Shown here piece by piece: positions 1-18,533 of a stretch of DNA of 18,533 nt. The DNA is from a virus (taxonomy: Duplodnaviria > Heunggongvirae > Uroviricota > Caudoviricetes), in the IMG/VR virus record IMGVR_UViG_2684622582_000009; one strand, written 5' to 3'. The position numbers and the translations under genes were made by a program. Position 1 is the first letter of the stretch, and each line of letters begins with the position of its first letter. The notes under the pieces were generated by a model. The model saw only the letters and a list, made by a program, of their open reading frames with translations. It did no database searches and was not told the DNA's origin.

Positions 1-825
1 CTATTTCTTCTCTGTAATTTTTACACTGTTTTCCAACTGCTTGATGCTGACCTGCGGGGTCGGCAACTCCTCAGGCATGGTTCCGCCAAGTTCCTGAATG
101 GTTTGCCTCACCTTGCGACCCACGTCAAAGTGTGTGGTATTAGCTTGCTGTTTTGAATTCACGCCATCCCGCTTGAGTTTTTCTTCTGTTTGGGTAGCTC
201 GAAAGAGATTAGCCGCCAGTTCTGTTGAACCCATATGATCCAGGATCTTCTGACTCTTTTTCAGCCCCTTCCGCTGATGGATGGCTTTCTGATCTAATCC
301 ACCATACAGTCCCCGGTAACCATGATTCTGAAATATGGCGAAATCGATAGCTGTCGCTACCCCAGCTTGCTGCGCTGCCTCAACTAATTGTTTGTTATGT
401 TCTTTCAACTCATTTCTCAGAAAAAGACGCTTTTCGTCTTCACGAAGTTGCCTGAAAGCTTCATCGTCAGCCAGCTCCTGCCGTCGGGTCTGGATAGCAA
501 AATAAGTTTGCCCTGCCGCAATAACCGGTTTCGCAGGGTCGCCGTTTTGTACTACCAGGTAACAGGCATAGCGGGAGAGATGAACATCTTCAAGTTCTCG
601 TTGAGCCCCTGAACCTAATACAACCATTTTGGTGGTTTCAACGAAATGGTCAGATGCAGCTTGATTGCTGGCTTCGCACGCTTGAGTCGCGCGGGCCAGT
701 ACCTTTTGAAAATTGCGCCAGTCCCGATAATCCAGTAACGGTGCCAATTCTCTCGCTGACCAAAATTCTTGCCCTTCAGTGCCATAATGCCGTATTTCTT
801 CAAAAGGTTGATGATGTTCGTTCAT
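1..825 (-). CDS. dinD: DNA damage-inducible protein DinD (274 aa; complete, stop codon at 1..3)
   Basis: The 278-aa ORF 1..837 contains an internal Met (MNEHHQPFEEIRHYG...) at 825 preceded by a GGAG Shine-Dalgarno, giving 274 aa, the length I recall for E. coli DinD. The N-terminal sequence matches my memory of DinD. A LexA box lies 46 nt upstream. Identity is from recall, not a search. Confidence 0.85.
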   Translation of the reverse strand: MNEHHQPFEEIRHYGTEGQEFWSARELAPLLDYRDWRNFQKVLARATQACEASNQAASDHFVETTKMVVLGSGAQRELEDVHLSRYACYLVVQNGDPAKPVIAAGQTYFAIQTRRQELADDEAFRQLREDEKRLFLRNELKEHNKQLVEAAQQAGVATAIDFAIFQNHGYRGLYGGLDQKAIHQRKGLKKSQKILDHMGSTELAANLFRATQTEEKLKRDGVNSKQQANTTHFDVGRKVRQTIQELGGTMPEELPTPQVSIKQLENSVKITEKK

Positions 826-870
826 TGCCCACTCCATATGATATCGATTGCAAGGAAAGTAAGTTTACAA

Positions 871-886
871 CTGTGTTTATATACAG
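871..886 (-). promoter_or_regulatory. LexA (SOS) box CTGTGTTTATATACAG upstream of dinD
   Basis: Read directly: CTG-N10-CAG with an AT-rich core, flanked as AACTGT...ACAGTT (869..888). Its reverse complement AACTGTATATAAACACAGTT is nearly identical to the dinD SOS box as I recall it. Confidence 0.8.
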
Positions 887-1521
887 TTGTGAGTATCTCA
901 CGTTCTCACTGCGCTGGGCAAAAAAACATCGCAAAATCTGGAGCAGGCACGCAAAACAGAATTGAATGTTGCGGGGAGGAAAAATGCCGCTCTGTTTGAG
1001 TGGGCGGCATTTGTGAAGGCTGAAAAGGAAGAATTGGCGTTACGAGTTGGATCTGTTTGTAGAGTGTTGGCTTCAATGCCGCATTGTGGCTGGTTTCTTT
1101 CTAATGCGGTTTTTGATTATGTACACCCTTATGTACACGGTTTTTTCGGGTGCTTTGGCCAGAAGCCATTGTCTACATCCCTCACGATCGAGGTGTGTAA
1201 CCATGTTCAGGCTTGTTGTCCTGCGCGCGCGTATTGCTCGTGAAATTGCTGTAACCAATAGTGATGTCCGAAAAAACCTCCGTTCTCACATGAAACAGCC
1301 ATGTGCAACTGGTAACTGAATAGACTGGTAGACCGTTCGTTCAGTAAATACCTGATATTTTCGCCAACGAGAAATTGCGTTGGCTGGCAGAGTGCAAATT
1401 TGCACGATGACCTAACCCATTGATTTTTTCGAAAACCTACAATGCAGGAAGCCGGATAACACCATTTTTATAGCTCCGATCCCTTCAAAGTGAGGGGGAA
1501 TTTGCCAAAACAGAGAGAGCA

Positions 1522-2296: not shown

Positions 2297-3382
2297 ATGA
2301 TTCTCAAAAGCCACCTGTATTCAATGCCTTTGATGGGTTTCATCCATAGTTATTTTCTCGTGACTGACATGGAGATTTTGATTTCAAGGTGTGCAAAAAC
2401 TATCGCAGAGTACAATGGAGCTCAAATGACTGTGGCACCAAAAGATCAAAGTTTGAAATCTGTAAGGGTGGGCTTTTACACAAGCTCTGAGAATATTCGC
2501 ACTAGTAACAAGGGGTTAACCGCAGAGGCCTTTAAAAATCTGTATGATCGGTGTTCTAAAGACTTCAAGATGACCCACTATGCAGACTTTGGTGAAAGAG
2601 AACTTAAAATTCATTTTCTAGACATCTCACCCGAGGATGGCTCCTACTTCGGATTCATGTCTCGAAGAAGAAAAAGCGCAACACTGGCATATATTACAGA
2701 TAAAGAGTGGGTGGAAGAGAAAATCCCTCTAGCCGGGGCAAAGACTCTTTCAGAACGTACATACTTTATTTATTATCCTCAGACAGACATTCTAGTATTG
2801 TCTTTAAATCATTTAGGTCCACGCCATAGTGACTTAGCCTTCCTTCTTTTCAACTCCAGTGATCGCGGAGTCCCTGTTTCTTTTGAAGCCATTTGGAAAG
2901 AAGAAAGCATCAAAGAACTACTCGAAACTGGATCCAATCTAAGAAGCTGCGAGATTTCTGTGGCCATCCCAAGAAACTTCAATGCCGCACAGTATCAACT
3001 CGATGGAATGTTCGCGAATCAGATGATTGAGATGATCAGAGGCACCAGTTCAAGCCACCTGACTATTTCGTTACGCGGACATTCTCCATTAAAAAGAAAA
3101 GCAAAGGGATGGCTTGAGGATGACGTTAAAAAAAGCCTTAAGGAGATGCTAGAAAAGTTCCCTGGTGGTGATGGTCGTTTAACTTTTGAGAAAGCAAATG
3201 TTGTTGCTCAGGGCGATAAAAAGAAGAAAAGTCTTGTAGACGAAGTTCTTACGGTAAAGAAGATGGTGCCTATCCAAGCAGATGGGTATCCGACCGATAC
3301 TGACGTTAAAAATGCTATGCTACAAGCAAAGAATGACAACCTTAGGTATCTAACCCAGTACTATTTGGTTAGTCAAACGTAA
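2297..3382 (+). CDS. Hypothetical protein (361 aa as drawn), first gene of an AT-rich two-gene operon; candidate defence/abortive-infection component
   Basis: Long uninterrupted ORF in visibly AT-rich DNA. Possible starts are ATG 2297 (AGGT about 5 nt upstream) or ATG 2426 (GGAG 5 nt upstream), so the true N-terminus is uncertain. The stop lies 12 nt before the next gene's start. I recognise no family motif by eye. Confidence 0.6.
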   Translation: MILKSHLYSMPLMGFIHSYFLVTDMEILISRCAKTIAEYNGAQMTVAPKDQSLKSVRVGFYTSSENIRTSNKGLTAEAFKNLYDRCSKDFKMTHYADFGERELKIHFLDISPEDGSYFGFMSRRRKSATLAYITDKEWVEEKIPLAGAKTLSERTYFIYYPQTDILVLSLNHLGPRHSDLAFLLFNSSDRGVPVSFEAIWKEESIKELLETGSNLRSCEISVAIPRNFNAAQYQLDGMFANQMIEMIRGTSSSHLTISLRGHSPLKRKAKGWLEDDVKKSLKEMLEKFPGGDGRLTFEKANVVAQGDKKKKSLVDEVLTVKKMVPIQADGYPTDTDVKNAMLQAKNDNLRYLTQYYLVSQT

Positions 3383-3394
3383 CAGGAATACATT

Positions 3395-3832
3395 ATGAGT
3401 TCTCGGAAATTGTTTGCTGCCAAGTCATTGTTTGCTCTAGCTATGGCTATTGCTGGTGCCCATTTTTTACACGACCTAGATCACAATGCTGTCATTTCGG
3501 CTGCTGGTGCTCTTTCAACTATTTCTGGAGTTCTCTTTGGTTTTGTTTTGGCATCAGTCACCATGCTAAGTAGCTTTGATAGTTCAAAGGGAATTGTAGG
3601 CGCTCTAAAAAGTAACGGAGTACTAAAAGGCATTATTGAGGGGCTTTTTGATACAGGAACTACGCTGATCACAGCCTGCCTATTAGCAATGATCTCGATG
3701 TTTGCCCCTGTTGTCAGCAATCTGCCTCTGGATTATTATGCCCTGCTACTCGCAGGGGCATATTTGATTATATCAATGATAACTTTTTTCTTTAACTGGA
3801 AATCTTTATCTAAAATAATAAGTTACATATGA
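3395..3832 (+). CDS. Small integral membrane protein (145 aa, about four predicted TM helices); candidate membrane effector
   Basis: AGGAA Shine-Dalgarno 7 nt upstream of the ATG. Four hydrophobic segments of about 20 to 25 residues (LFAAKSLFALAMAIAGAHFL; AVISAAGALSTISGVLFGFVLASVTMLSSF; TTLITACLLAMISMFAPVV; YYALLLAGAYLIISMITFFFNW). Starts 12 nt after the 361-aa ORF. Confidence 0.7.
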   Translation: MSSRKLFAAKSLFALAMAIAGAHFLHDLDHNAVISAAGALSTISGVLFGFVLASVTMLSSFDSSKGIVGALKSNGVLKGIIEGLFDTGTTLITACLLAMISMFAPVVSNLPLDYYALLLAGAYLIISMITFFFNWKSLSKIISYI

Positions 3833-4554: not shown

Positions 4555-4664
4555 CCCCATCAACTGGGAGCGGATTTGAAATCCCGACCCAAGCTATGTA
4601 CCAAATGCCATGTCTTGGATATATGATGATTGCCATTCTAAACAACGCTAAAGGGAGGGTTGGT

Positions 4665-5063
4665 GTGAATCAATTGAAGCGATTGGTTGTCTCCGGTTTA
4701 TTATTTGCTTCTTTTGGAGCGAACGCTGAATGCTGGATTATTGGTGATCTGAAAGGACAAGAAGCCTCAAGTTTAGATGGGTATAACTATAAGTTATCAT
4801 CTATACCAGATACATTTCATTTGGTAATAAGTAAAGAGAAGGCGGATCTTATCTTGGCAAAAGATGGTATAGGTGGAGGTATTGATTATTACCCGCTATC
4901 TCCGAATGCCATGATGGGAAGAAGCTATCGAGATGGTCAACTGACGCTTGTCACATGGGCAATCTCAAATGACGGAAAAGTGATCCATACACGAACAATT
5001 AGTCGATCTGATATAGGCTCATTTACAGGCTCATTTGTCGGCAATGTTAAAGGCAAGTGTTAA
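4665..5063 (+). CDS. Small secreted/periplasmic protein (132 aa from GTG 4665) with a Sec-type signal peptide
   Basis: A strong Shine-Dalgarno AAGGGAGGG (4652..4659) sits 5 nt before the in-frame GTG at 4665, whereas the upstream ATG at 4596 has none. The N-terminus NQLKR-LVVSGLLFASFG-ANA|E has the n/h/c regions and AXA site of a signal peptide. The mature part has a Cys near each end. Confidence 0.55.
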   Translation: MNQLKRLVVSGLLFASFGANAECWIIGDLKGQEASSLDGYNYKLSSIPDTFHLVISKEKADLILAKDGIGGGIDYYPLSPNAMMGRSYRDGQLTLVTWAISNDGKVIHTRTISRSDIGSFTGSFVGNVKGKC

Positions 5064-5124: not shown

Positions 5125-7230
5125 TTATTGAGCTTCCTTTTGCGATGCTTGTGCTGCTGTGGTCAGTGATTGTGTGACCGTACTGATCGCTCTGTCATAT
5201 GCTGTGCTACCTTTTGGCGTATTTGCCAGACGTAACAAGGCATTTCGTATAACAGGGCTTTCGTATGCCTTCGCTGCTCCGCCTACGGAACCAGCAGCAG
5301 GAACAACAAACGCAGCCGTTTTTAGCATCCCCGCTAATACTGCTGCGTTTATGATGCCACCACCAACTAACAATCCATAAAGCTGCTGACCATTTAAGTT
5401 TTGAACGTTCGCTTTTGCCGCGTGTCTTGTATCGTTGAGGTATTTAATAACGCCGTCCAGTTCCTTTCCATGTATGCCTTTAAAGAAAGTTGCTGATTGC
5501 TTCCTGTTCCGGTGTAACGCATTAATAAACTTCTCAACACTGATATTTCCAGACGGATCAGTCGCCTTATCTACAGCATTCTGAACTATGGCTGCTCGTG
5601 CGTTTTGCCTACCATTGTCATCCAGAAGCCTGTAAAGCTGAGAACGTTCTGATGGGCTTTGGCTAAAAACAAGTTTTGTTACATCCTCAGGCGTGGCCTT
5701 GCCGCTGGCTATTGCCTTTTGAACGCGCGTTCTTCCCATCATGTCATTGAATTTAGACCATGAGCGATCAACCCTTGCCATATTAATAGCTTCGTCTGCT
5801 CCAAGATTTTTGGCTACGGCTTTTTTCATATCCGCCGTATATGCCTTGTAGATAATATCGCTGGCTTTCTGGAGCGTATCTTTATCAACAGTGTCAGATG
5901 ACGCCATAAATCGCTTTCGAAGATCGGTTCTGTTTTCCCTCGCCAGACGCAGGTCATTTGGTCCGCTGGTGATATCGTCTTTAAATTGCTGCAAGACTTT
6001 TACCGCGGCTCTATCCTGAGATTTGCCCGGGCGGCTTAACACGGCAATCTGATTGTCGATAGCTTTTACCGTGTTTGAGAGATCGACAGGGGTATCCCCC
6101 ATAGCGTCAATTATGCGGTTATATCGCTTTCCTGCTGCCTCAATGAATTTTTGTTGCCCTTTAGTCGCAGATTCATAAAGCTGTTTATCAGAAATGCCAC
6201 CCAGACCATCGCTAAATGTTCTGACTAAATTTTCTCGTGCTTGTTGTTGATTCAGCCGATTCTTACCGGTTCCAAAAAAAGGAACTCTTTCGCCTAATGT
6301 CTGAGCCTGACTCTGCATAAAGGTTTTATCTTTCAGCATGTCACTGGTCATTAACGGCAGATTTCTTTCCGATGCAAAGTCGACAGCAGCCTTTGCTTCA
6401 GGCGATATATCACCACGAACAGCCCTCGAAACCGCACTCGCTGTATTTTCCAGCCCCTTACCAATACCACCAATGCCAGCAGAAATTACCGTTTGTAACG
6501 GATCAATATCTTCTCCACCAGCGAGGCTGGTGGCTCCCTGTAGTGCTAAATCTGTAGCTGCTGATTTCCCTATGGCCCCCAGCACCGTTCCGGCCCTGCC
6601 CGCTGGTGTAAACGCCAGCGCATTAGCCAGAAACGATGCCACGTCTTGCGGCGATAAACCCGGCTTGTTCAGAGCATAATCACCGGATGGCAGGGAAACG
6701 ATAGTGTTACCCTTCTCATCCTGCCTTAATTTCGCTCCCATGCTCTGAAGAATCTTTTCCTGAGATGCGTCAGAGCCGAAAAGTTGAGACCATCGAGCTT
6801 TTAGAGCATCCATGCTGAGTGAGGTTAACTCTGGGGCAAGGTCGACATTTTGCAGTCTCTCCATCTCTGGAGTCATTCGGCTTTCGCCTGTTATAGCATC
6901 GCGCATCGCAGCCCCAAGACTGGCTCCCTGTTCTGCTGAACGCTCAAGCCCCTCTCTTTGCTGAGTAGCTAACTTTGCATACCCTGACGCAAGAGAATTA
7001 TCAGATGATGTATGTTGAATATTTTGAGTTGCTGATTGGGATCGGTCTATTTCATTCGTTGATGGTAGTGGATAGGCAGCATAAAAAGCCTGCTTAGCCT
7101 GCTCTACACTTTCTCCGGCTTGCGGGGCAACGACTTCATTGAAGTATTGCTCCTGAGCCTGCGCTTTTTGTTCTGGTGCTAACGCCTGATACTGTGGAGA
7201 GGCGATAACATCTTTCCATGCTTTAGCCAT
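5125..7230 (-). CDS. Large hypothetical protein (701 aa), A/Q-rich with a C-terminal glycine-zipper hydrophobic hairpin
   Basis: ORF with a GGGGTGA Shine-Dalgarno. Its ATG overlaps the upstream gene's stop (TAATG at 7228..7232), indicating translational coupling. The C-terminal segment LYGLLVGGGIINAAVLAGMLKTAAFVVPAAGSVGGAAKAY is about 40 hydrophobic, Gly-rich residues. No Walker A or other catalytic motif is recognisable. Confidence 0.75.
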   Translation of the reverse strand: MAKAWKDVIASPQYQALAPEQKAQAQEQYFNEVVAPQAGESVEQAKQAFYAAYPLPSTNEIDRSQSATQNIQHTSSDNSLASGYAKLATQQREGLERSAEQGASLGAAMRDAITGESRMTPEMERLQNVDLAPELTSLSMDALKARWSQLFGSDASQEKILQSMGAKLRQDEKGNTIVSLPSGDYALNKPGLSPQDVASFLANALAFTPAGRAGTVLGAIGKSAATDLALQGATSLAGGEDIDPLQTVISAGIGGIGKGLENTASAVSRAVRGDISPEAKAAVDFASERNLPLMTSDMLKDKTFMQSQAQTLGERVPFFGTGKNRLNQQQARENLVRTFSDGLGGISDKQLYESATKGQQKFIEAAGKRYNRIIDAMGDTPVDLSNTVKAIDNQIAVLSRPGKSQDRAAVKVLQQFKDDITSGPNDLRLARENRTDLRKRFMASSDTVDKDTLQKASDIIYKAYTADMKKAVAKNLGADEAINMARVDRSWSKFNDMMGRTRVQKAIASGKATPEDVTKLVFSQSPSERSQLYRLLDDNGRQNARAAIVQNAVDKATDPSGNISVEKFINALHRNRKQSATFFKGIHGKELDGVIKYLNDTRHAAKANVQNLNGQQLYGLLVGGGIINAAVLAGMLKTAAFVVPAAGSVGGAAKAYESPVIRNALLRLANTPKGSTAYDRAISTVTQSLTTAAQASQKEAQ

Positions 7231-8696
7231 TAATCACCCCATAGTGAAGAAAAGTTACTGCTGGCTGCTGGCTGTGATACCTGCTCAGATTGCGGCAATG
7301 TCTGCGACGAAGAAGCAGTTCCTCTGTCAACTGCTGAAATAACCCGCAAAGCATCATAAGTTCGACCAGAAGCAGCTTTCAGCGAATTGAACTGGTTTTC
7401 CATCTTCCGGCGCTTGGTATCAATGGTTTTTGTGGAGTCGCCAGGCTGAGGGAAATACATTTGATAATATTTTGACATTTCAGCAGGTGCGATAGCTGCC
7501 CCTGTTTCCTGACGGAGTATTGCCATTATTGCGTCATTAGCATTAACAACGTATTGCTGCTCTGCTGGGCTGAGCGTTAAGTTAGCCAGCGTCCCATTAC
7601 CCAAAGCATTATTAATGATCGCCACTCGCTGTGGGCTAAGCTGGTCTTTCAGTGTATCTATTGAATCAAGAGCATCCCTAACCCTGTATGCAAATCCAGC
7701 AGCTTTTTTAGCCCCTTCTGGCGACTTTTCCATGATCTTTTGGGCTGTTGGCAAAGCTATTGGACGAAACCCATCTCCAGATATTGGCTGGTTTAGTTTT
7801 CCCTGCTCTTCACTTCCGTCTGTGTAGTATTTTGTGACAGTGCCATCATCGTTTTCTCTAACACTCATTAATTTTTTGGCGTTTGTATTAATTCCAGCCG
7901 CTGCCGCAAATGCCGCCGCCCCCTCTGGATCCGCCTTTAACATTTGCGCGTACTGATTGTAATTCTGCATTGCGGCTGTTGGTGCATATGCTGACGTTAA
8001 CGCATTTGCTCGGCTAATATCCTGCCCTCTCGCCTGAAGTGCTTCTCCGGCCTGATTGCTGCGGATTGTCTCTGCCAACTTGCCACGCTCAATATCCCGA
8101 CCTTCCATTTGATCTTTGATATCGAAATACTTCTCATGACCGAGAGAAAACAGCGCCAGATTACCTGCGAAATGCTGGAAGCCCTGCGGGTCATTAACCT
8201 GCATTTCAGCAATAGTTTCTGGAGGGATACCTAAACGACGCATCTCCTGCTCATTATCCATCATGAACCTGCCAAATGCGCCCTGACCAAGCGATGAGGC
8301 TACCTGTGCTTTGAGCGCCAGATTGCCATAATCATCCCTTTGAGCATCATCGACATAACTCATCCCTTTACGGACTTCCTCAAACTCTTCTGGGAATGCT
8401 GTAATAAGATTACGCATCTGCTCCCTGTCACCGGACGCATAAGCATCTGCATAACCTTTCTGGAATGCTGCTTTACGCTCCTGCTGTTGCTGCTGCTTAT
8501 AAATATCAGCAACTCCAGCCAGACCACGAAGACCTGTCAGAGCAACGTTATTTGCACCTGAGCGAGCCAGTTCATTGTTTTCGCGGATCAGACCAAGCGT
8601 TGCGTTAATGTCGCTTGCTTTTGGCGCATTCTCATTTTGCGTACCGATGCCAGCCAGAAAACCACCAGAATTAATACCCTGTTGCCACGTAGCCAT
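7230..8696 (-). CDS. Large hypothetical protein (488 aa from ATG 8696; 492 aa if GTG 8708 is used), A/Q-rich, low complexity
   Basis: Long ORF translationally coupled to the 701-aa gene. The track start at 8708 is a GTG overlapping the upstream small gene; the ATG at 8696 (MATWQQG...) lies 4 nt after that gene's stop. Contains a QQQQQ run and many Ala/Gln. Confidence 0.75.
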   Translation of the reverse strand: MATWQQGINSGGFLAGIGTQNENAPKASDINATLGLIRENNELARSGANNVALTGLRGLAGVADIYKQQQQQERKAAFQKGYADAYASGDREQMRNLITAFPEEFEEVRKGMSYVDDAQRDDYGNLALKAQVASSLGQGAFGRFMMDNEQEMRRLGIPPETIAEMQVNDPQGFQHFAGNLALFSLGHEKYFDIKDQMEGRDIERGKLAETIRSNQAGEALQARGQDISRANALTSAYAPTAAMQNYNQYAQMLKADPEGAAAFAAAAGINTNAKKLMSVRENDDGTVTKYYTDGSEEQGKLNQPISGDGFRPIALPTAQKIMEKSPEGAKKAAGFAYRVRDALDSIDTLKDQLSPQRVAIINNALGNGTLANLTLSPAEQQYVVNANDAIMAILRQETGAAIAPAEMSKYYQMYFPQPGDSTKTIDTKRRKMENQFNSLKAASGRTYDALRVISAVDRGTASSSQTLPQSEQVSQPAASSNFSSLWGD

Positions 8697-8700
8697 AAAT

Positions 8701-8874
8701 TTACCCACGTCCAGTTAAAGTGTAAGCCAGCGCCTTATCCATTAATCCCCGAGCAATTTCGTGGATCGTTGGCGCAACTCCTACCTCTGATTTTTTACGC
8801 TGCTCCTCCTGAATTTTCTTTATCGCTTCCATTTGCTTCTCACTTATCAATACTGGCTTTACTGAAATAGCCAT
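8701..8874 (-). CDS. Small protein (57 aa), possible ribbon-helix-helix DNA-binding protein; first gene of the LexA-box operon
   Basis: Not in the ORF track because it is under 60 aa. The ATG at 8874 follows a strong Shine-Dalgarno AAGGGGG. Translation: MAISVKPVLISEKQMEAIKKIQEEQRKKSEVGVAPTIHEIARGLMDKALAYTLTGRG. A beta-strand-like VKPVLIS followed by two helical segments is compatible with an RHH fold, judged by eye only. Confidence 0.5.
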   Translation of the reverse strand: MAISVKPVLISEKQMEAIKKIQEEQRKKSEVGVAPTIHEIARGLMDKALAYTLTGRG

Positions 8875-8889
8875 AACGCCCCCTTAGAA

Positions 8890-8913
8890 CTGTATAAAAC
8901 AACAGTTATTATA
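8890..8913 (-). promoter_or_regulatory. Candidate SOS promoter: LexA box CTGTATAAAACAACAG (8890..8905) directly downstream of a perfect TATAAT -10 (minus strand, 8908..8913)
   Basis: Read directly: CTG-N10-CAG with an AT-rich spacer, flanked as AACTGT...ACAGTT like the dinD box. It sits 16 to 31 nt upstream of the 57-aa gene's ATG, a position typical of LexA operators overlapping the -10/+1 region. The -35 element is weak. Confidence 0.6.
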
Positions 8914-9196
8914 GTTTCACAAATCGCAATATTCATCATCGTAATTGCAAAATATGAAACAAATAGCACAAAAAAATGCCACCGCTCAGTAGCTGGTGGC
9001 ATCGTTCTGTGTGTCAGGTTTTGACAGGTTTTTTATGGACTCTAAAAACTATATTTATGGTGTCGCATTACTCTTCACGGCAGGCGCTTTTCAGTTCTGC
9101 CCTTGCTTCTGGCTCCATTGGTAATTTGATTCGCGATCAGCTATGCGGATGGTTTGCTGAACAGGCATAACAACTTCTCAGAGGCTGTTTTTTGAA

Positions 9197-9272: not shown

Positions 9273-9322
9273 CACTCTCTGATGCCAGCCAGGTGTTGTG
9301 CGCATCAATTCAGTCACATTGT

Positions 9323-9440
9323 GTTGGTTCAAAATACCGTGTTGTTGGTTCAGTGTTGGTTCAATAAAAAGAATAAAATCCTTATAAAACAATACTCTTT
9401 ACAAATTGAACCAACTGAACCAACTGAACCAACACCTTTT
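9323..9440. repeat. Iteron array B: GTTGGTTCA at 9323..9331, 9344..9352 and 9355..9363, then three tandem TGAACCAAC (9407..9433); mirror image of array A
   Basis: Read directly. Positions 9395..9440 are the exact reverse complement of 1839..1884. The array lies immediately downstream of the primase-helicase gene, consistent with an origin-type alpha-binding site (inference). Confidence 0.7.
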
Positions 9441-9458: not shown

Positions 9459-12215
9459 TCATTCTTCAGATGAGTTATAATCTCCTGGCTGGTAATTGAG
9501 TACATAAACGTTTATTTGTCGTCCCTGAATACGTGGTGATTTTCTTTGGTATCCACGACCGCTGTTTGGTGGGGTTAGCATCCCGGCTTTTTTCAACACT
9601 TCAGCAAACTGTTTTGCGTTGAAACCACATGCGATCTCCTTTTCAAATGTGGCCGGGAATGTGTAGAAAATCATTGGGCTTTCGTCATGTTCTCCACGCT
9701 GACGGTATCCGGCTAAATCTTTGATGGGCAAATCTGCCGGGCTGTATGGAAATGGAGCAAAACGGCTAAGCCCATAGGCATTAAGAAATGCCTCCGTTTG
9801 TTCAATAATCTGCTGATGCTCTTTGTTACCTGTGCCGAACTCGCGCAACCATGCGTTATAGCTGTGCTGTATCGCATCACGGCATGTCTGAGCATCCCAG
9901 CCTGTTACAACCTCGCCTAACAGCAATGCGGCCTCCAGAATGGCAAATCGCGCGGCTACACGGTGAACCTGCTCACCATAATCGGATGGGATCAGACTTC
10001 TCCATCTGCTTTCGCAGTCACGAACAGTTTTAATTGCCTGTTGCTGGTGGTCTGCCAGCCATTTAATCCACTCACGCCCGGCTGCGCCGTGGTGATGCTG
10101 GTAAGCGTCTTTCAGTGCGTCTGCGTGCTGTTTTCCGTTCTGGTAATCGTGAAAGCGTACTGCTTTACTCAACGGAATATTCAGCAGTCGCACCAGTTGC
10201 CCGGCTTTGGTTTTTCGCCCGGAAGTAGCGATAAATGTTTCTAAATCCATTTCTCCGGTGCTGATTGCCACTGTACGCCAGCGTTTTAGATCCCGGTTTC
10301 CACCATCTTTAGCGCCTTGCAGTTTCCCTACACCGTTAAATAACGCATAGGCAGACTGTGAAACACTGACAGGATCAGCGCCCTGACCAACTTCATCAAG
10401 CGGCATTAGTCCGTCATTGTGGGCGGCAGCTTCATTTGCCAGCCCCAGCGCGGTTCCGTACCATGTCAGCCGCAGTAAATCAGGGTTGCCGTATAAGCAG
10501 CTCGCCACGTTTGCCGTGGTGGTCTTACCTGCGCTCGACTGCTCATAGAAATGAATGCCGAACCCGTCAGCGCCCACCAGCCCAATCAATGGCGCTGCCA
10601 GTGCTGCGCCGATCCCGGTCATCATTGAATAGTTACCAAAGGCCAGACGCGCCACGTTATCACGCCAGCTTTTCGCGCTCCCTGAGACGGTATATCCGGC
10701 TGCGGCTGAGCTTCTCCCGCTGAACAGCACAGGATTTTCAGGTGTTCCGATGATTTCCCCATCAGGCATGATGTACGCTCCGCATTGCCAGCCAGTGGCA
10801 TGAGCAACACGCCACAATTCACGAGAGCCACTGCGTTGTAGCCAGTCTGCCAGTATTGCTCTGAGGCTGCTTTTGGTCGTGACATTTACCCCACCAGCTT
10901 TAAGTGTGCGCCATCCTTCACGTTCACCAATATCAGCCAGTGGAATGGCAGCGGTTGTCGGCGTTTCAGAACCAAACGACAGCCAGCGAAGAATGAGATA
11001 CTGGTCTTTATCGTCTCTGCCAGTACCGATAACGCTTAACGGAGAACATAACCAGCTTTCGTTATTGATGATTTCTCCACTCTGGCTGTCAGCTCTCGGA
11101 GATACCCAATAAATACCATCCTCGCGGCTTTCTATTCTTGGTTTCAGTGGGTCGGTATCCATAACCTTAAAATCGCTTCCCTCAATGGTCTGTGGCTCCT
11201 GTTTCACGCCATTACCCTGTGGTTGGTACATTGACTTATTGAACGCTTCTGTGGCGCATTTAATGCCGTGTTTTTGGTGGTAATCATTCCAGTCTGCTTT
11301 GTGATCTGTCGGGGGTAATGCCACCCATCCAGAAACAGATAAAGCTGCCTTTTCTGCTGCTATTCTCCCCGTGTTTTGTCTTACTTCGCTGTGGTCGTTA
11401 TCCGCAGCAATGATGATTTGTGCTGAAGGAAATTTATCCCGCAGTACCTGGGCGACATATAACAGGTTCCCGGCATCAATCGCCGCCACTGTCAGCGCCT
11501 CTGGACGAATTAAATGGGCAGATAATGCCGTTGCCAGCCCTTCTGCGATTAAGATGCTCTGTGTTGTTTCTGGTGCGTTTATGGCGTGATATGCCCCTCG
11601 CTTTGCTGAACCTGTCAGGAGTCTTTTTTCACCATGTGAGGTAATAGTCTGTGCTGCTGTTACTGCGCCGGATTTATCCACCAGCGCCAGCAACAGAGAT
11701 CCATCGGGCAACACGGGGAATGTAAAATCACCTACCCCTTTCGCAACCAGATAATCAGATTTGCCGTTTACAGCCTTTCTGCGCATGTCATCAAACTGAC
11801 GGGAAAACGTATCCCGTCTTTGTTGTTCGTCCTTCTCTGCCCTTTTCAGGCGCTCCTGTTCGCGTCGCTGGCGCTCGGTTTCCAGTTGTTCCCGTTTCTG
11901 GCTGGTGGCTTCTGGTGTTTCCGTTGTCCGGTAATCAATACCCAGAACATCAGCGGCAAGAAGCGCCGCCTCTGTTGTGTCGCAGTTATTTACGCGTTTA
12001 ATTAAATCCAGCCCATCACCAGCGCCGCACTGATTACAGATGAAGCTACCGCGCCCGTTGTCGTCGAACCGGAATCGATCTTTGCCCCCACATGCAGGGC
12101 AGGGAGCATGACGGCGCGGAGAGTCAGGGACATTTATGTTCAGACAGCACAGCACATGAGGCCAGTTGTTTTCAGACGCACTGATAACCTGACGGATAAG
12201 ATCAATGTTTCGCAT
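9459..12215 (-). CDS. P4 alpha-like primase-helicase (918 aa)
   Basis: N-terminal Cys4 zinc ribbon (CPACGG...CNQCG), a TOPRIM-like acidic segment (IIIAADNDH) and a Walker-A-like SSAGKTT in the C-terminal half. GGGGG Shine-Dalgarno upstream of the ATG at 12215. This architecture matches P4 alpha / D5-type primase-helicases as I recall them. Confidence 0.85.
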   Translation of the reverse strand: MRNIDLIRQVISASENNWPHVLCCLNINVPDSPRRHAPCPACGGKDRFRFDDNGRGSFICNQCGAGDGLDLIKRVNNCDTTEAALLAADVLGIDYRTTETPEATSQKREQLETERQRREQERLKRAEKDEQQRRDTFSRQFDDMRRKAVNGKSDYLVAKGVGDFTFPVLPDGSLLLALVDKSGAVTAAQTITSHGEKRLLTGSAKRGAYHAINAPETTQSILIAEGLATALSAHLIRPEALTVAAIDAGNLLYVAQVLRDKFPSAQIIIAADNDHSEVRQNTGRIAAEKAALSVSGWVALPPTDHKADWNDYHQKHGIKCATEAFNKSMYQPQGNGVKQEPQTIEGSDFKVMDTDPLKPRIESREDGIYWVSPRADSQSGEIINNESWLCSPLSVIGTGRDDKDQYLILRWLSFGSETPTTAAIPLADIGEREGWRTLKAGGVNVTTKSSLRAILADWLQRSGSRELWRVAHATGWQCGAYIMPDGEIIGTPENPVLFSGRSSAAAGYTVSGSAKSWRDNVARLAFGNYSMMTGIGAALAAPLIGLVGADGFGIHFYEQSSAGKTTTANVASCLYGNPDLLRLTWYGTALGLANEAAAHNDGLMPLDEVGQGADPVSVSQSAYALFNGVGKLQGAKDGGNRDLKRWRTVAISTGEMDLETFIATSGRKTKAGQLVRLLNIPLSKAVRFHDYQNGKQHADALKDAYQHHHGAAGREWIKWLADHQQQAIKTVRDCESRWRSLIPSDYGEQVHRVAARFAILEAALLLGEVVTGWDAQTCRDAIQHSYNAWLREFGTGNKEHQQIIEQTEAFLNAYGLSRFAPFPYSPADLPIKDLAGYRQRGEHDESPMIFYTFPATFEKEIACGFNAKQFAEVLKKAGMLTPPNSGRGYQRKSPRIQGRQINVYVLNYQPGDYNSSEE

Positions 12216-13304: not shown

Positions 13305-13495
13305 TTTTCACCCCCAAGAATTACCAGCTCGGCACGGGCATCGTTAACCAAAGATGAGCACGCTTTAATCGCATCCACGACATCAGCAGCGTCCATTTCT
13401 TCAGCCGAAAGACTGACAGCAACCAGGACAGCCGCTGCTTGCTCGATTAATTGAAGTGCGGACGTAAGGCGAGGGGTATTAATTGAGTTATTCAT
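13301..13495 (-). CDS. Small hypothetical protein (64 aa from ATG 13495; [10 protein letters not shown]...)
   Basis: The ATG at 13495 overlaps the upstream gene's stop region (CCAATGAATAA). The track's longer 83-aa version would overlap the upstream gene extensively. Confidence 0.5.
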   Translation of the reverse strand: MNNSINTPRLTSALQLIEQAAAVLVAVSLSAEEMDAADVVDAIKACSSLVNDARAELVILGGEK

Positions 13496-13706
13496 TGGTT
13501 GCCCCCGTTTTGCATGGCATTTGTCCACCTTCCAGCAGGAAATGAACGTCACGAACGGCGAGATCCAATATCGCGAGTAACGCCTTCAGTTTTTCATCTC
13601 GTGAGGGAGAGTTGCTTGCCAGAATGTCGTTAATCACTTCTGTCAGTGTGATGATCTGGCTTGTGCGTTCGAGGGGATCCATATGCACATCGTAGGTTTT
13701 AATCAT
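13488..13706 (-). CDS. Small hypothetical protein (72 aa from ATG 13706; [15 protein letters not shown]...), in frame with and nested in the 355-aa ORF
   Basis: A strong Shine-Dalgarno GGAGGTGG lies immediately upstream of the ATG at 13706. The C-terminal part looks protein-like, whereas the middle of the 355-aa ORF does not. Confidence 0.45.
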   Translation of the reverse strand: MIKTYDVHMDPLERTSQIITLTEVINDILASNSPSRDEKLKALLAILDLAVRDVHFLLEGGQMPCKTGATNE

Positions 13707-14555
13707 GTGCCACCTCCATGCGGATACGACCAGCAAAAAAGCAGACGTGATCGCGCACCAGAGAAAGGCGAGCATCGCGTTCAGACTCGGCAGCAATATG
13801 ATGAATTTTGGCGGTAATTGTCGGGCAATCGCGGCGAACTGCGGCGATAATCCAGATAAATTGCGGTTTTTGGGTAGGGGTAGTAGCCAGCATGTGGCAG
13901 CCTCCTTCAGATAGCAGGTTACGCTACCACCGGAAACGCCAATTTCGCTGGTGGTAGCCCAGACAGGGTTGGCGTAACCGGCTCTGAAGGATACCGGCGC
14001 TTCCGAAGAAGCCCCCGCCTGAGCCACCATTGATTGACAAGGGCGCTGGATTATACACCAACGCCCAAAAAATGGGTGAGTCAGACCTACGACATAAAAA
14101 AAGACGCTCGGCGCGTCATATGTCGCCTTCAGAATTTTCAGGACGCCAATCCCGGCACCCGTTTTATGAGGTGCCTTATAACCATAAACCGTGTTGCCGC
14201 ATAACGGCAAGCTCTTTTTTATGGACTCCGAAAACTCACTATTGGAAGCACCAGATGCACAATACATCGCGCTTATTTCGTTAACGTCACGCGCGTGGAC
14301 GAAGGTTTTTGTGGAGTCACTACACGAGCAGAACAGGTCATCTACGACCAGAAATTCTCTGGCGCAGCCGCTGACCTTCTCAACGCTAACATCATCGACC
14401 GTAATTTCTGACATAGTTAAGGCATCCGCTCCTACCACCAGCAAATGATAAACTTTGCTTGTATCTGCTGTATTAATGCCTGACTTTGCCGCCATATTGC
14501 TGTATTTTGGCGACATGCCAGCCAGTGAAAATATCTTCTTCTGGACGGGTATCAT
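13488..14555 (-). CDS. 355-aa ORF of uncertain reality (possibly a genuine N-terminal gene plus read-through, or a region with non-coding function)
   Basis: The start at 14555 has a GGAGG Shine-Dalgarno and ATGA coupling to the upstream 59-aa gene, so translation probably initiates here. The central 150 or so residues are rich in W, C and P and look like a non-coding frame, and several opposite-strand ORFs overlap. Confidence 0.3.
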
Positions 14556-15569: not shown

Positions 15570-16001
15570 TTAGGCGGCGTTAAACGCGTCCGGGTAGAGT
15601 TTCAGAATGTCGGCAATTTCCTGCTGAGAAAGTCCGTTGTGATCATTTATGTTCGCAAGATGGTTAACATGAGTGATCACTTTCAGAACATCACCACGGC
15701 AGGAGAAACGGTAGCGAAGGTGTGTTCCGATACCATCAGGATTCTTTTCGTCGATACGCTCCAGAGTGATTCCAAGCTGGCGTTCTAACTCTGTTGCATA
15801 GTTACGACCAGAAGACAGACGGCAGTAGCGAAGAATGTCATTTTCTGTCCATCCCTCTATACCAGTACGCAGCATATAGACTCGGGCACGATGCTTTTTC
15901 GGTGTGCGCTTTGGTGCTTGAAGGGATTTTGTAAGGGGCGTAATATCAGATACGCGAATATCTGAATTAGCCGCCTGTAATGGGCGGTTTTTCTTTTCCA
16001 T
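15570..16001 (-). CDS. Hypothetical protein (143 aa), coupled to alpA
   Basis: ATGA overlap with the alpA stop at 15999..16003. Basic N-terminus; no family recognised. Confidence 0.6.
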   Translation of the reverse strand: MEKKNRPLQAANSDIRVSDITPLTKSLQAPKRTPKKHRARVYMLRTGIEGWTENDILRYCRLSSGRNYATELERQLGITLERIDEKNPDGIGTHLRYRFSCRGDVLKVITHVNHLANINDHNGLSQQEIADILKLYPDAFNAA

Positions 16002-16204
16002 CAGGCCACCTTCCCGCGGCGTTCTGCCAGCCAGTTGTGAATCTCAACCGCATCAAACGCAGTTATTTTTTCTCCCAGCTTTACCGGACGTGGTAGTGAA
16101 CCGTTTCTTACTTTACGGTCGATGGTGGATACACTAACGCCCAGCAATTCAGCCAGGCGAAAGCGTCTGATATAGCCTTTTGTAGGGATAGTGTCGATGT
16201 TCAT
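16001..16204 (-). CDS. alpA: AlpA-family (phage Vis-like) transcriptional regulator (67 aa)
   Basis: The segment RLAELLGVSVSTIDRKVRNGSLPRPVKLGEKITAFDAVEIHNWL fits the AlpA helix-turn-helix pattern (L-x-E-x-x-G-x-S-x-STI-x-R ... P-x-P-V-K-L-G ... W) as I recall it. Its position just downstream of the integrase region is typical for P4-like and PICI elements. Confidence 0.8.
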   Translation of the reverse strand: MNIDTIPTKGYIRRFRLAELLGVSVSTIDRKVRNGSLPRPVKLGEKITAFDAVEIHNWLAERRGKVA

Positions 16205-17279: not shown

Positions 17280-18533
17280 TCATGCTCTGATTGGCGTTAC
17301 GTTGTAGTCTTTTCCGCTTTCCAGTGCCACCAGCAGATCTGCCCACTGTGCCAGTGCTGCTTTACGCTCATCAAAATACTGATGACGGTTATAAATCCCC
17401 TCTACGCCCTTAATGCGATGATTGAGGCATCGTTCCGCCACGACAGGATCAACACCCAATGCTGCTAAATGAGTACGTGCGGTGCGTCGGAAGTCGTGAA
17501 TCGTGAAATTAGGCACATCCGGCATTTCGGCGCGAACCTTAGCCAGTGCTACGGGTAAAGTGCTTTCCTGAATATGTGGGATCATTCTGTTTTGCATCTT
17601 CCTGGCCGGAAGCACCCATGCGCTATTACATGAAAAGGTGTGTAGCTCTCTCAACCATTCAGCGGCTGGGGAAGGTAGAGGTATATCAATAGGGTCTCCG
17701 TTTTTGCTGCGTTCTTCCGGCAAATGCCATACCGCACCATCTAAATCAAACTCTTCCCATCGTGCGGCGCATAACTCCATCTTACGAACGCATAGTGCCA
17801 GCAATAGTTTAAATGTCAGTTCGTTTTGGCGGCTGAATCCTTTTGCGGTGCGCATAGCCTCGAATAGCCTGATAAGCTCATCGCGAGTTAGCCAACGGTC
17901 GCGGGAAACCTCTTTACCACCAGCATCAGATACTTCAAACGCTGAACAAGGGTTTATCTCCAGAGCGTGGCGTTTTATCCCATAGTCAAAGATACGGCGT
18001 GTCCAGCGTAATACATCTGTTGCTATCGTTGGTGCTCCTCGGTCAACGATACCTTTCAACATGTCGTCAATGTGGCGTGGCTTAACGTCCTCTACCTTCA
18101 TATGCCCAATGCAGGGGTTAATATCCTTATCAATTCTCCGGCGAAGGATATCGGGATGTTTCCATCTCGGAAGTATCTGGCGCTCGAAGTATTCGGAGGC
18201 CAGATCTGAAACACGCATGGCGTTTTTCTCAGCCTCCATTTTTGCCAGTGCTTCAGCTTTTCGTTCCTGTTTCTCTGCTGCTACGTCATAGCCAAGAGCA
18301 ACTCTGGCTGACAGCTCTTTTGCTGTTTCTCTGGCTTTTGATAGTGACAGTTCGGAGTAAGAGCCTATAACCATAGCCCGCTGCTTTCCTGCGAGCTTAT
18401 AGCGGAATCGCCAGAACGGGACTGTGTAGTTTTTGGGGTAGCAAATATAAAGGCCGTTGCCGTCTGCCTTGCCATCAAATCTGTCTCCCGCCTTTATCCA
18501 TGCGCGGATCTGCATATCTGTGAGTTTTGGCAT
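17280..18533 (-). CDS. int: P4-type tyrosine integrase (417 aa; complete, start codon is the last three bases of the window)
   Basis: The C-terminal catalytic region has HDFRRT (His-x-x-Arg) and IYNRHQY (candidate Tyr nucleophile), characteristic of tyrosine recombinases. The N-terminus (GLYICYPKNYTVPFWRFRYKLAGKQRAMVIGSY) resembles the P4-type integrase arm-binding domain, from recall. Confidence 0.9.
   Translation of the reverse strand: MPKLTDMQIRAWIKAGDRFDGKADGNGLYICYPKNYTVPFWRFRYKLAGKQRAMVIGSYSELSLSKARETAKELSARVALGYDVAAEKQERKAEALAKMEAEKNAMRVSDLASEYFERQILPRWKHPDILRRRIDKDINPCIGHMKVEDVKPRHIDDMLKGIVDRGAPTIATDVLRWTRRIFDYGIKRHALEINPCSAFEVSDAGGKEVSRDRWLTRDELIRLFEAMRTAKGFSRQNELTFKLLLALCVRKMELCAARWEEFDLDGAVWHLPEERSKNGDPIDIPLPSPAAEWLRELHTFSCNSAWVLPARKMQNRMIPHIQESTLPVALAKVRAEMPDVPNFTIHDFRRTARTHLAALGVDPVVAERCLNHRIKGVEGIYNRHQYFDERKAALAQWADLLVALESGKDYNVTPIRA

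Follow-up and report, generated by a model that had tools for sequence, protein, structure and literature searches.

What does an operon of large proteins behind a LexA box do inside a phage satellite? The island that carries it lies in an 18.5-kb window (the whole stretch of DNA analysed, 18,533 nt) and is a PICI-type phage satellite in E. coli, with an integrase, AlpA, AntA, DUF4222, Ash, a TOPRIM/DUF927 primase and origin iterons. No capsid, terminase or lysis gene was found in the window island, and no packaging gene of the TerS/Rpp-like kind was seen in it. The operon occupies the minus strand of the window in the order 57-aa, 488-aa and 701-aa ORFs, and its features and those of the neighbouring replication region are as follows.

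5125..7230, minus strand: 701-aa protein homologous to P22 gp16, which builds the DNA-ejection conduit at the inner membrane (profile and sequence matches)
7230..8696, minus strand: 488-aa protein homologous to P22 gp20, which forms the tube of that conduit in the periplasm (profile and sequence matches)
8701..8874, minus strand: 57-aa ribbon-helix-helix (RHH)-like protein, encoded by the conserved first gene of the operon (predicted RHH fold)
8885..8879, minus strand: Shine-Dalgarno sequence AAGGGGG (read from the sequence)
8888..8907, no strand assigned: predicted LexA (SOS) box of 20 nt, AACTGTTGTTTTATACAGTT on the minus strand and AACTGTATAAAACAACAGTT on the plus strand, covering the expected transcription start
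8913..8908, minus strand: -10 hexamer TATAAT, adjoining the LexA box (read from the sequence)
8915..8929, minus strand: putative proximal palindromic operator TTGCGATTTGTGAAA, adjoining the -10 and filling the spacer/-35 zone
8936..8931, minus strand: ATGAAT, the sole and weak -35 candidate, at a 17-nt spacing to the -10
8945..8959, minus strand: putative distal palindromic operator TTTCATATTTTGCAA, beginning 46 nt upstream of the -10
8978..8993, minus strand: intrinsic terminator, a GC-rich stem-loop followed by ATTTTTTTGT, which parts the primase/origin region from the operon promoter
9321..9435, no strand assigned: putative satellite replication origin with GTTGGTTCA iterons, three direct and three inverted, just 3' of the primase gene
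9459..12215, minus strand: 918-aa primase-helicase with zinc ribbon, Toprim and DUF927 domains, the satellite replication gene (domain search)

The initial annotation had proposed three tightly coupled genes forming an operon within the satellite, and the layout supports a self-contained unit of this kind: the stop of the 57-aa ORF lies 4 nt short of the ATG of the 488-aa ORF (8696), and the stop of the latter overlaps the ATG of the 701-aa ORF (7230). Because the intrinsic terminator (8993..8978) sits just upstream, the operon has its own promoter; the same terminator is kept in the published satellite EcCIMP1 (L011) and in locus L001. The perfect TATAAT described initially does directly precede the LexA box, which lies upstream of the 57-aa gene as stated, but at 13 nt from its ATG (8874) and not at about 16 nt. 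All related loci have the -10 in this position, as TAAAAT in a few of them, and the promoter was not called by a consensus promoter scanner because its -35 is poor. Of the two palindromes, the distal one (TTKCRT-N3-AYGMAA) is consistently placed at offset -46 in most of the lineages sampled, and the proximal one likewise at -16 in most, with exactly 30 bp from site to site.

The box itself agrees with the near-consensus SOS operator originally reported at the front of the operon, in a position where LexA would occlude both the -10 and the transcription start. Its CTGT-N8-ACAG core is intact, and this strict core occurs twice in the window against 0.18 occurrences expected from shuffles, the other copy serving as operator (888..869) to dinD, a classical SOS gene. 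The operon box matches the textbook LexA consensus TACTGTATATATATACAGTA at 14 of 20 positions and is like the dinD operator at 17 of 20, differing at three. Thus, as predicted from its sequence, LexA very probably shuts off the operon promoter, and an inert box is unlikely. The spacer of the box differs between related loci, in five sequence versions (Escherichia, Citrobacter, Serratia, Erwinia/Pantoea and L083), but CTG and CAG never change. Lineages of Escherichia, Citrobacter, Serratia and Erwinia/Pantoea have a canonical box; in Klebsiella-type lineages it is one base too short. This shortened form, CTG-N9-CAG, which should not suit LexA, accounts for 27 of 65 IMG/VR loci, and a further 21 lack a box. 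Of 15 IMG/VR loci with P22-type cargo, 14 carry the canonical form. Because the canonical box is not universal in the family, SOS control would be lineage-specific, and the RHH protein and the two palindromes may be the primary control of the promoter; the RHH protein may regulate its own synthesis through them.

The two large proteins had been called uncharacterised and devoid of recognisable enzymatic motifs. They indeed lack a catalytic motif, but both match phage ejection proteins and are named accordingly by NCBI PGAP ('phage DNA ejection protein' for the 488-aa and 'P22-gp16 family' for the 701-aa protein). The 488-aa protein matches Pfam PF16928 (Inj_translocase) over residues 12-228 (1.6e-83) and phrog_917 over its full length (1.3e-142). 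Its N-terminal ~235 residues are 55-58% identical to gp20 of P22-like phages (tblastn) and its C-terminal half is similar only to APSE P33; to gp20 of the P22-like phage Kapi1 it is 53% identical, over residues 1-212 only. The 701-aa protein reached no Pfam model in a Pfam search, but its residues 19-700 align with positions 3-667 of the 668 in phrog_770, 'DNA transfer protein' (7.7e-162). In tblastn it is 67.5% identical to the protein at the gp16 position of Escherichia phages N7 and HZ41, and it is 31-39% identical to gp16 of Sf6, ST64T, ST104 and a Proteus phage. The homologues and the RHH gene are functional rather than decaying, being under purifying selection (dN/dS = 0.085 for the gp16 homologue against the O26 island copy, 0.31 for the gp20 homologue and 0.19 for the RHH gene). 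Two grounds had been named jointly against a new system, clear resemblance to common structural proteins of phages and an inert box; the resemblance was found, but inertness looks unlikely. The proteins are recognisable; what is unusual is their presence in a satellite.

In P22, gp20 and gp16 form a trans-envelope DNA conduit with gp7. Homology covers the gp20 N-terminal domain and full-length gp16, and both systems have gene 20 before gene 16 with overlapping stop and start. However, in its C-terminal half the gp20 homologue is unrelated to P22 gp20, the operon lacks gp7 and gp14, and the satellite has no capsid, portal or tail genes. In phages the ejection genes belong to the late operon, behind the tail genes, and have neither a promoter of their own nor a LexA box, whereas in the window they follow an SOS-type promoter and an RHH gene.

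In about 90 related loci in Enterobacterales, sampled through the RHH gene, what follows this gene and its promoter is always a set of genes for the part of the virion that delivers DNA, one set per locus: P22-type gp14/gp7/gp20/gp16, tape measure proteins, TMP-SLT with Dit and baseplate hub, or SLT/internal virion proteins. The module is syntenic in several genera, and some copies have decayed to pseudogenes or are interrupted by IS elements (H2, H4). In E. coli, islands have either gp20 and gp16 only or the full gp14/gp7/gp20/gp16 set, and K. aerogenes has a gp7/gp20/gp16 form. Of 5426 complete E. coli genomes, 501 carry the promoter together with the RHH gene, which was absent from 50,697 phage records.

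The window island is a sibling of EcCIMP1, a PICI of E. coli MP1 mobilised by Kapi1 (Pick, Stadel & Raivio, ISME J 2025, PMC11773190). That study showed experimentally that EcCIMP1 excises only with Kapi1 and is transduced by it, although very inefficiently, and noted 'DNA transfer'-like genes of unknown role as possible packaging factors. Both islands share the backbone listed above from integrase to primase, as well as PerC cargo. The stretch from the terminator through promoter and LexA box to the 5' end of the RHH gene is near-identical, with two substitutions upstream of the distal palindrome; the promoter is identical over about 70 nt and the box throughout, and ejection-protein homologues follow directly downstream. 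The islands differ in site, tRNA-Thr for EcCIMP1 and between dinD and yicC for the window island, and in content: EcCIMP1 has four such genes (gp14-like DUF2824, gp7-like, gp20-like and a 906-aa SLT-gp16), of which the window island has only gp20 and gp16, and these are only 26-30% identical between the two. The suggestion of an undescribed system therefore holds in part, as the sibling and its candidate genes have been published but neither LexA nor the RHH gene is mentioned in that paper.

Altogether, we favour, with a probability of about one half, a model in which this is an SOS-timed, late, virion-modifying operon of an EcCIMP1-family PICI-type satellite with P22-like podophage helpers, giving helper virions satellite-specific DNA-conduit proteins. 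In an undamaged cell, LexA would hold the operon off, and the RHH protein may add control through the two conserved upstream palindromes. DNA damage would lead to LexA cleavage, and the same signal would induce a resident P22-like helper prophage. Satellite gp20 and gp16 would then be produced in the cytoplasm and enter helper-built procapsids, alongside or in place of the helper ejection proteins. In the next infection, they would make up the portion of the entry conduit for satellite DNA that lies in the periplasm and the inner membrane. That very different ejection proteins can replace those of P22 in virion assembly and DNA injection is documented (PMC10461980). In EcCIMP1, the master regulator alpA is triggered by the helper rather than directly by DNA damage (PMC11773190); therefore an SOS-only trigger would be partly uncoupled from the satellite cycle.

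Other satellites offer parallels. According to PMC3152322 (citing Ubeda et al. 2007), operon I of the S. aureus SaPIs is a virion-related, LexA-regulated operon downstream of the replication module. Both operons share this position, proteins that alter the helper virion (proposed here), repression by host LexA (demonstrated for SaPI, only predicted here) and firing with SOS. SaPI operon I encodes TerS and capsid-size redirection proteins, not DNA-ejection proteins, and has no sequence homology to the window operon. Capsid-forming PICIs (cf-PICIs) likewise encode part of the virion instead of taking all of it from the helper, making their own capsids and stealing only tails (10.1101/2025.02.11.637232); the window satellite family encodes the opposite part, the components that penetrate the envelope and deliver DNA (ejection proteins, tape measure, hub), with no capsid or packaging genes.

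Could the proteins instead be spare parts that work in virions and cover for a defective or under-producing helper prophage, leaving entry specificity unchanged? A back-up precedent exists in EcCIMP1, whose alpA_1 can replace Kapi1 xis (PMC11773190), and the variable gene sets of the islands are compatible with this idea. A spare part should, however, resemble that of the helper, and EcCIMP1 gp20 and gp16 are only 26% and 24% identical to those of the proven helper Kapi1, compared with 83% for gp14 and 57% for gp7; the window island retains exactly the two most divergent proteins. We consider this explanation possible but improbable.

Two functions suggested initially, a helper-interference factor and an anti-phage effector, survive as minority rivals. 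In the first, satellite gp20 and gp16 would be dominant-negative subunits that poison the helper ejection apparatus and lower helper infectivity. Satellites often sabotage helpers via structural-protein homologues, such as SaPI Ccm and PICI Tai systems (PMC8569155, PMC11364771), and ejection proteins load in trans into every procapsid in the cell. Yet Kapi1 titres from induced lysogens are unaltered by EcCIMP1 (PMC11773190), satellite DNA rides in the same particles and would suffer equally, and the proteins are full length with purifying selection as in working ejection proteins, making interference somewhat less probable again. In the second, the proteins would be decoys in the resident cell, preventing superinfecting P22-like phages from injecting DNA or assembling their conduit. 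EcCIMP1 adds superinfection immunity against Kapi1 in Kapi1 lysogens and has no known defence system (PMC11773190), and a PADLOC scan here was also negative. Nevertheless, both proteins lack a signal peptide and any other visible path to the periplasm, a LexA-repressed promoter would silence the operon in healthy cells, and the cargo region of these islands has other candidate defence genes (e.g. Abi and unknown cassettes); we therefore regard a cell-based defence as decidedly unlikely.

An inert remnant of a P22-like prophage, recombined into the island next to a chance LexA-like palindrome, is already disfavoured and seems very improbable: ejection-protein genes are otherwise phage late genes and decayed copies exist, but the operon has its own terminator-insulated promoter, a satellite-specific leader gene, synteny and purifying selection, and only 25-67% identity to any sequenced phage protein. 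Finally, operons of large proteins behind a LexA box are typical of colicins and pyocins, but an SOS-induced killing system, bacteriocin-like as suggested initially or tailocin-like, is scarcely credible given full-length matches of both proteins to phage ejection proteins, no toxin domain, no immunity, lysis, export, receptor-binding or tail genes, no signal peptide and no PADLOC match.

Returning to the virion-modifying operon, its most speculative step is that satellite-carrying particles would differ from helper particles in DNA-entry specificity. The protein classes of the satellite family are those that determine escape from injection-blocking superinfection exclusion by P22 SieA, HK97 gp15 and lactococcal Sie, namely gp16 and gp20 in podophages, where SieA-escape mutations map to the C-terminal regions, and the tape measure protein in siphophages (PMC10461980). 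In exactly gp20 and gp16 the EcCIMP1 versions stand furthest from those of Kapi1. We see the SieA, HK97 gp15 and Sie exclusion proteins as hypothetical antagonists rather than homologues; no sie gene was recognised in the window and no sieA is annotated in Kapi1. Two very different SieA types exclude hybrid phages with very different ejection proteins, with partial escape only for HK620 proteins (PMC10461980), so divergence alone is no guarantee of bypass. Within these bounds, we speculate that changed entry specificity could mean escape of satellite particles from SieA-type injection-blocking exclusion in lysogens, or access to other hosts.

The two large proteins of the operon belong to the gp20 and gp16 families of P22-type DNA ejection proteins. 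The initial annotation had read a TATAAT hexamer, an SOS box and coupled genes for 57-, 488- and 701-aa proteins from this DNA, all of which are present on the minus strand, and it had described the larger products as large uncharacterised proteins, a description that matches to PF16928, phrog_917 and phrog_770 do not bear out. The 488-aa protein matches PF16928 ('DNA/protein translocase of phage P22 injectosome', P22 gp20) at 1.6e-83 with 280 bits (gathering cutoff 29.7), the match spanning residues 12-228 and profile positions 1-217/218, and it matches phrog_917 along its full length. Its N-terminal ~235 residues agree at 55-58% with those of P22-like phages, and its C-terminal half resembles APSE P33 only. 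For the 701-aa protein, the match is to phrog_770 ('DNA transfer protein', P22 gp16), at 7.7e-162 over profile positions 3-667/668; the protein is 67.5% identical to the gene-16-position protein of Escherichia phages N7 and HZ41 and 31-39% identical to gp16 of Sf6, ST64T, ST104 and others. Neither Pfam-A nor NCBIfam assigned it a family at E<=0.01, and its SLT-bearing relatives in other islands have PF26808 among their precomputed matches. RefSeq PGAP names for the two proteins are 'phage DNA ejection protein' and 'P22-gp16 family phage DNA ejection protein', and the gp20 homologue lies directly upstream of the gp16 homologue, the order seen in P22-like phages. Inspection of both sequences revealed no signal peptide.

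The 57-aa protein has the predicted beta-strand, helix, helix topology of the ribbon-helix-helix (RHH; CopG/Arc/MetJ) class over ~45 residues. It matched no Pfam, NCBIfam or PHROG model, its profile picked up only noise among PDB sequences, and tblastn found no copy of the protein in 50,697 phage records. NCBIfam returned nothing for six proteins, the three of the operon and three of the neighbouring cargo.

The operon and its control region, as read from the window sequence, are laid out as follows.

Control region and genes of the operon
8993..8978, minus strand: intrinsic terminator, just upstream of the operon promoter
8945..8959 and 8915..8929: two 15-bp palindromes, TTKCRT-N3-AYGMAA, upstream of the -10 hexamer and exactly 30 bp apart
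8913..8908, minus strand: -10 hexamer TATAAT
8907..8888, minus strand: LexA box AACTGTTGTTTTATACAGTT, directly after TATAAT; on the plus strand AACTGTATAAAACAACAGTT, a CTGT-N8-ACAG palindrome
8885..8879, minus strand: Shine-Dalgarno sequence AAGGGGG
ATG at 8874, minus strand: 57-aa ORF, its stop 4 nt ahead of the ATG (8696) of the 488-aa ORF
7230..5125, minus strand: 701-aa ORF, its ATG (7230) overlapped by the stop of the 488-aa ORF

With a terminator just upstream, the operon forms an autonomous transcription unit; its promoter was missed by a consensus promoter scanner because of a weak -35. The SOS box has an intact CTGT-N8-ACAG core in CTGTATAAAACAACAG, with A or T at nine of the ten bases between CTG and CAG, and the window contains two strict LexA cores, where chance would give 0.18. 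The operon box starts at the base following TATAAT, so that the expected start site (~7 nt past the -10) falls inside it, a position at which LexA binding would block initiation. The other strict core is the operator of dinD, a classical SOS gene, and matches the operon box at 17 of 20 positions (three differ). We observed dinD itself at window 1-888, at the island's left edge, with its LexA operator AACTGTATATAAACACAGTT at 888..869; insertion of the island between dinD and yicC thus leaves two LexA-boxed promoters 8 kb apart. The two palindromes start 16 and 46 nt upstream of the -10 hexamer, and across genera nearly every related locus keeps these offsets. The combination of a -10 hexamer with two palindromes at constant offsets indicates a dedicated dimeric regulator, and it is a reasonable guess that the RHH protein is the candidate binder and autoregulates its operon through these sites.

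The operon lies in an island with the following features.

Features of the host island
between dinD and yicC: island insertion site
17280..18533: integrase
16001..16204: AlpA
9459..12215: primase with zinc-ribbon, Toprim and DUF927 regions
9321..9435: iterons GTTGGTTCA(A/G), three direct and three inverted, directly 3' of the primase gene
elsewhere in the island: AntA, DUF4222 and Ash-family genes, a PerC homologue, and cargo with no assigned role

Iteron sets 3' of the primase are the typical form of a satellite origin, and the iteron region is probably this satellite's replication origin. With an integrase, an AlpA-type regulator, a primase with its adjacent origin, a single orientation and a length within ~10-20 kb, and with no capsid, terminase, tail or lysis gene found in the window, the island has, by its gene content, the architecture of a Gram-negative PICI. 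No TerS-, Rpp- or Ppi-like packaging-redirection gene was found in the window either. Two features of the island lie away from the operon. Within or overlapping the Ash-family gene at 13488..14555 are Rfam gathering-score matches, both on the minus strand, to the C4 antisense RNA (13947-14034, 79.9 bits) and to the Hfq-binding sRNA isrK (14097-14174, 67.8 bits), a pair suggestive of an antisense immunity element of the P1/P7/P4 type in the early region of the satellite. Three plus-strand cargo genes, at 2297-3382, 3395-3832 and 4596-5063, lie between the operon and PerC and match phrog_7651, phrog_8552 and phrog_2651 and no PADLOC or Pfam model; related islands hold Abi, RexAB or toxin-antitoxin genes in this position, which makes the three genes a candidate defence cassette.

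The 57-aa RHH protein belongs to a family of 315 clusters, and members with an organism name come almost exclusively from Enterobacterales. We compared ~90 loci carrying the RHH gene, ~25 from genome and metagenome look-ups and 65 from IMG/VR. With few exceptions, the loci belong to islands that carry an integrase and AlpA and in which a DUF927 primase precedes the RHH gene, and nearly always this gene heads an operon of phage virion proteins of the DNA-delivery end, which fall into four types.

Cargo of operons headed by the RHH gene
Escherichia, Citrobacter, Serratia, K. aerogenes: P22-type gp14, gp7, gp20 and gp16, often with an SLT domain
Erwinia, Pantoea: 108-aa protein and 857-1166-aa tape measure protein
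Klebsiella, Raoultella: SLT tape measure protein with Dit-like, virion-structural and baseplate-hub proteins, often accompanied by a TerS-like gene
K. pneumoniae, some E. coli: SLT 898-aa, 575-aa and 855-aa virion structural proteins (relatives of Ab31-like podophages)

This pattern makes the window operon one instance of a modular cassette, in which a conserved promoter and RHH gene appear to be followed by DNA-conduit proteins suiting the morphotype of the helper. The TerS-like gene that shares the operon in Klebsiella-type relatives belongs to phrog_57. Longer runs of tail-tip genes after the RHH gene were seen at the IMG/VR loci L058, L062-65, L070, L073-74 and L081-93, comprising a tape measure protein with SLT, phrog_817, phrog_349, a baseplate hub (phrog_196) and others, in many cases beside a TerS-like gene, and what these satellites encode may amount to a complete distal-tail module. 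Separately, operons with the SLT-898, 575-aa and 855-aa genes end with a gene for a 127-aa protein in E. coli LR-33 (L022, 1307-1690) and at the IMG/VR loci L048, L053 and L094; it is annotated in LR-33 as 'Rap1a/Tai family immunity protein' and may guard against the peptidoglycan-degrading domain.

The SOS box follows the lineages. A canonical CTG-N10-CAG is found in the Escherichia, Citrobacter, Serratia and Erwinia/Pantoea lineages, including 14 of the 15 IMG/VR loci with P22-type cargo, and its CTG and CAG are invariant with a varying spacer, the footprint expected under selection for LexA binding. In Klebsiella, Raoultella, Cedecea and Kluyvera, TATAAT is accompanied by ACTGTATAAATATCAGG (CTG-N9-CAG, one base short) or by a degenerate element, neither of which should bind LexA. 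The CTG-N9-CAG form is faithfully kept at L005, L009, L010, L012-15, L025-29 and many of L044-L075; we rejected it as a LexA box in the Klebsiella-type loci, its right half being out of register. SOS control is thus a strong prediction for the window operon and its close relatives, and as judged from these promoters it is not universal for the RHH cassette.

Within E. coli, the promoter and small gene are present in 501 of 5426 complete genomes (9%), and the RHH-headed cassette is very common in Klebsiella. About half of the E. coli copies have the two-gene form of the window and about half a four-gene form, as in the E. coli O26 RM10386 island (L023), whose cargo consists of gp14-like and gp7-like genes, gp20 and the same 701-aa gp16. 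Between the two forms, 209 nt (window 8517-8725) replace 1296 nt of L023 that run from the 3' end of the RHH gene through gp14 and gp7 into gp20, taking in its first ~45 codons, and this mosaic replacement rules out a simple deletion as the origin of the two-gene form. A few copies are pseudogenes or are broken by an IS element, and dN/dS against the O26 RM10386 island is 0.085 (gp16), 0.31 (gp20) and 0.19 (small gene), values that speak for an ejection module maintained overall under purifying selection. A scan of genome contigs with gp20 gave one locus, L002 (Escherichia sp. MOD1-EC7003), in which gp20 is 82% identical to that of the window and is preceded by a glycine-rich gp7-like ORF, not by the RHH cassette; this may be a P22-like prophage with the closest phage-borne relative of the satellite gp20.

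The closest published system is EcCIMP1, an island of E. coli MP1 with the same backbone as the window and with a nearly identical terminator, promoter, LexA box and small-gene start. Excision of EcCIMP1 requires the P22-like phage Kapi1, and this helper transduces the island; transfer is inefficient, and the island's master regulator answers to the helper, not to DNA damage (PMC11773190). The paper describes the genes that follow the primase as 'DNA transfer'-like and suggests that they act in packaging, with no mention of LexA, the small gene or ejection (PMC11773190). Between EcCIMP1 and Kapi1, the only satellite and helper whose pairing is proven, identity is 83% for gp14, 57% for gp7, 26% for gp20 and 24% for gp16; of this ejection set the window island retains just gp20 and gp16. 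A second parallel is operon I of the staphylococcal SaPIs, which a passage in PMC3152322, citing Ubeda et al. 2007, describes as virion-related, downstream of the SaPI replication module and regulated by LexA. The window operon resembles operon I in position and in predicted LexA control, but it encodes ejection proteins and neither TerS nor Cpm, whereas operon I encodes TerS and capsid-size proteins; it is therefore of operon I-like design and not a member. PICI Tai tail-assembly-interference systems were set aside, as they are small proteins directed against the tail needle or fibre and bear no relation to the operon. The HE-PICI paper mentions DUF927 primases and contains nothing on ejection genes or LexA, and we found no literature on satellites encoding ejection, tape measure or internal virion proteins besides that on EcCIMP1.

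We propose, with a probability of about 0.3, that these islands represent an undescribed and widespread class of Enterobacterales satellites, which would combine a DUF927-primase PICI backbone with delivery-end proteins, whether ejection proteins of podophages, tape measure, Dit and hub of siphophages or internal SLT proteins, in place of capsid or packaging proteins, re-arm helper particles, and bypass injection-blocking superinfection exclusion (SieA, gp15, Sie) or reach other hosts, with timing by LexA in several lineages. For the window island, the sequence data show the protein identities, the satellite context, an autonomous promoter with a LexA box over the expected start site, and conservation with purifying selection. 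On the most likely reading, LexA would hold the operon silent until DNA damage simultaneously induced a P22-like helper prophage and derepressed the operon; the cytoplasmic satellite gp20 and gp16 would then be loaded into helper procapsids and, in the next infection, would form the periplasmic and inner-membrane part of the conduit. Such loading in trans is plausible because very different ejection proteins can replace those of P22 in assembly and injection (PMC10461980). SieA-escape determinants lie in the C-terminal parts of gp16 and gp20, and siphophage escape from an analogous exclusion maps to the tape measure protein (PMC10461980); these determinants of escape are the same protein classes as this satellite family carries. 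We speculate that a stolen particle, once re-armed with a different conduit, could gain entry to helper-excluding lysogens or to other hosts. Divergence is no guarantee of escape, since phages with diverse ejection proteins are excluded by SieA of two very different types, and Kapi1 has no annotated sieA.

Among rival explanations, the satellite proteins might serve as spare parts that complement defective helpers. They might alternatively act inside the cell as a decoy or in defence, in line with the superinfection immunity that EcCIMP1 does add, but the gp20 and gp16 homologues are without a route to the envelope and would be LexA-repressed. A bacteriocin-like toxin, raised in the initial annotation, fits poorly with the absence of toxin, immunity and lysis genes, and neither the operon's three products nor the three cargo proteins next to it matched a PADLOC-DB defence model. 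Kapi1 titres, which are unchanged by EcCIMP1, speak against a dominant-negative effect on the helper. An inert prophage remnant is likewise disfavoured, given the dedicated promoter, the cross-genus synteny and the dN/dS values.

With proteins of phage families already known and an island of a type already published, the operon is not the undescribed system for which it was first a candidate. Three aspects appear to be new, being absent from the literature that we found: the recognition of the large proteins as ejection proteins, the predicted control of ejection genes by an SOS box with an RHH/palindrome cassette, and the family-wide occurrence of satellite delivery modules matched to helper type. 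The small RHH protein and its operators are thereby flagged as a conserved regulatory cassette, and the ejection assignment offers an explanation of the 'DNA transfer' genes of EcCIMP1. Known satellite tricks include capsid theft, packaging redirection, head resizing and tail hijack; a DNA-ejection machinery of the satellite's own would be a further, so far uncharacterised way to customise the stolen virion. LexA-controlled virion operons of satellites would also extend from staphylococcal SaPIs to Gram-negative PICIs, and SOS-inducing antibiotics are predicted to turn on the module together with the helper. Finally, helper lysogens typically exclude the helper's DNA at the injection step, and the re-arming of helper particles offers a testable account of how a satellite might reach the cells that it most needs, namely helper lysogens.
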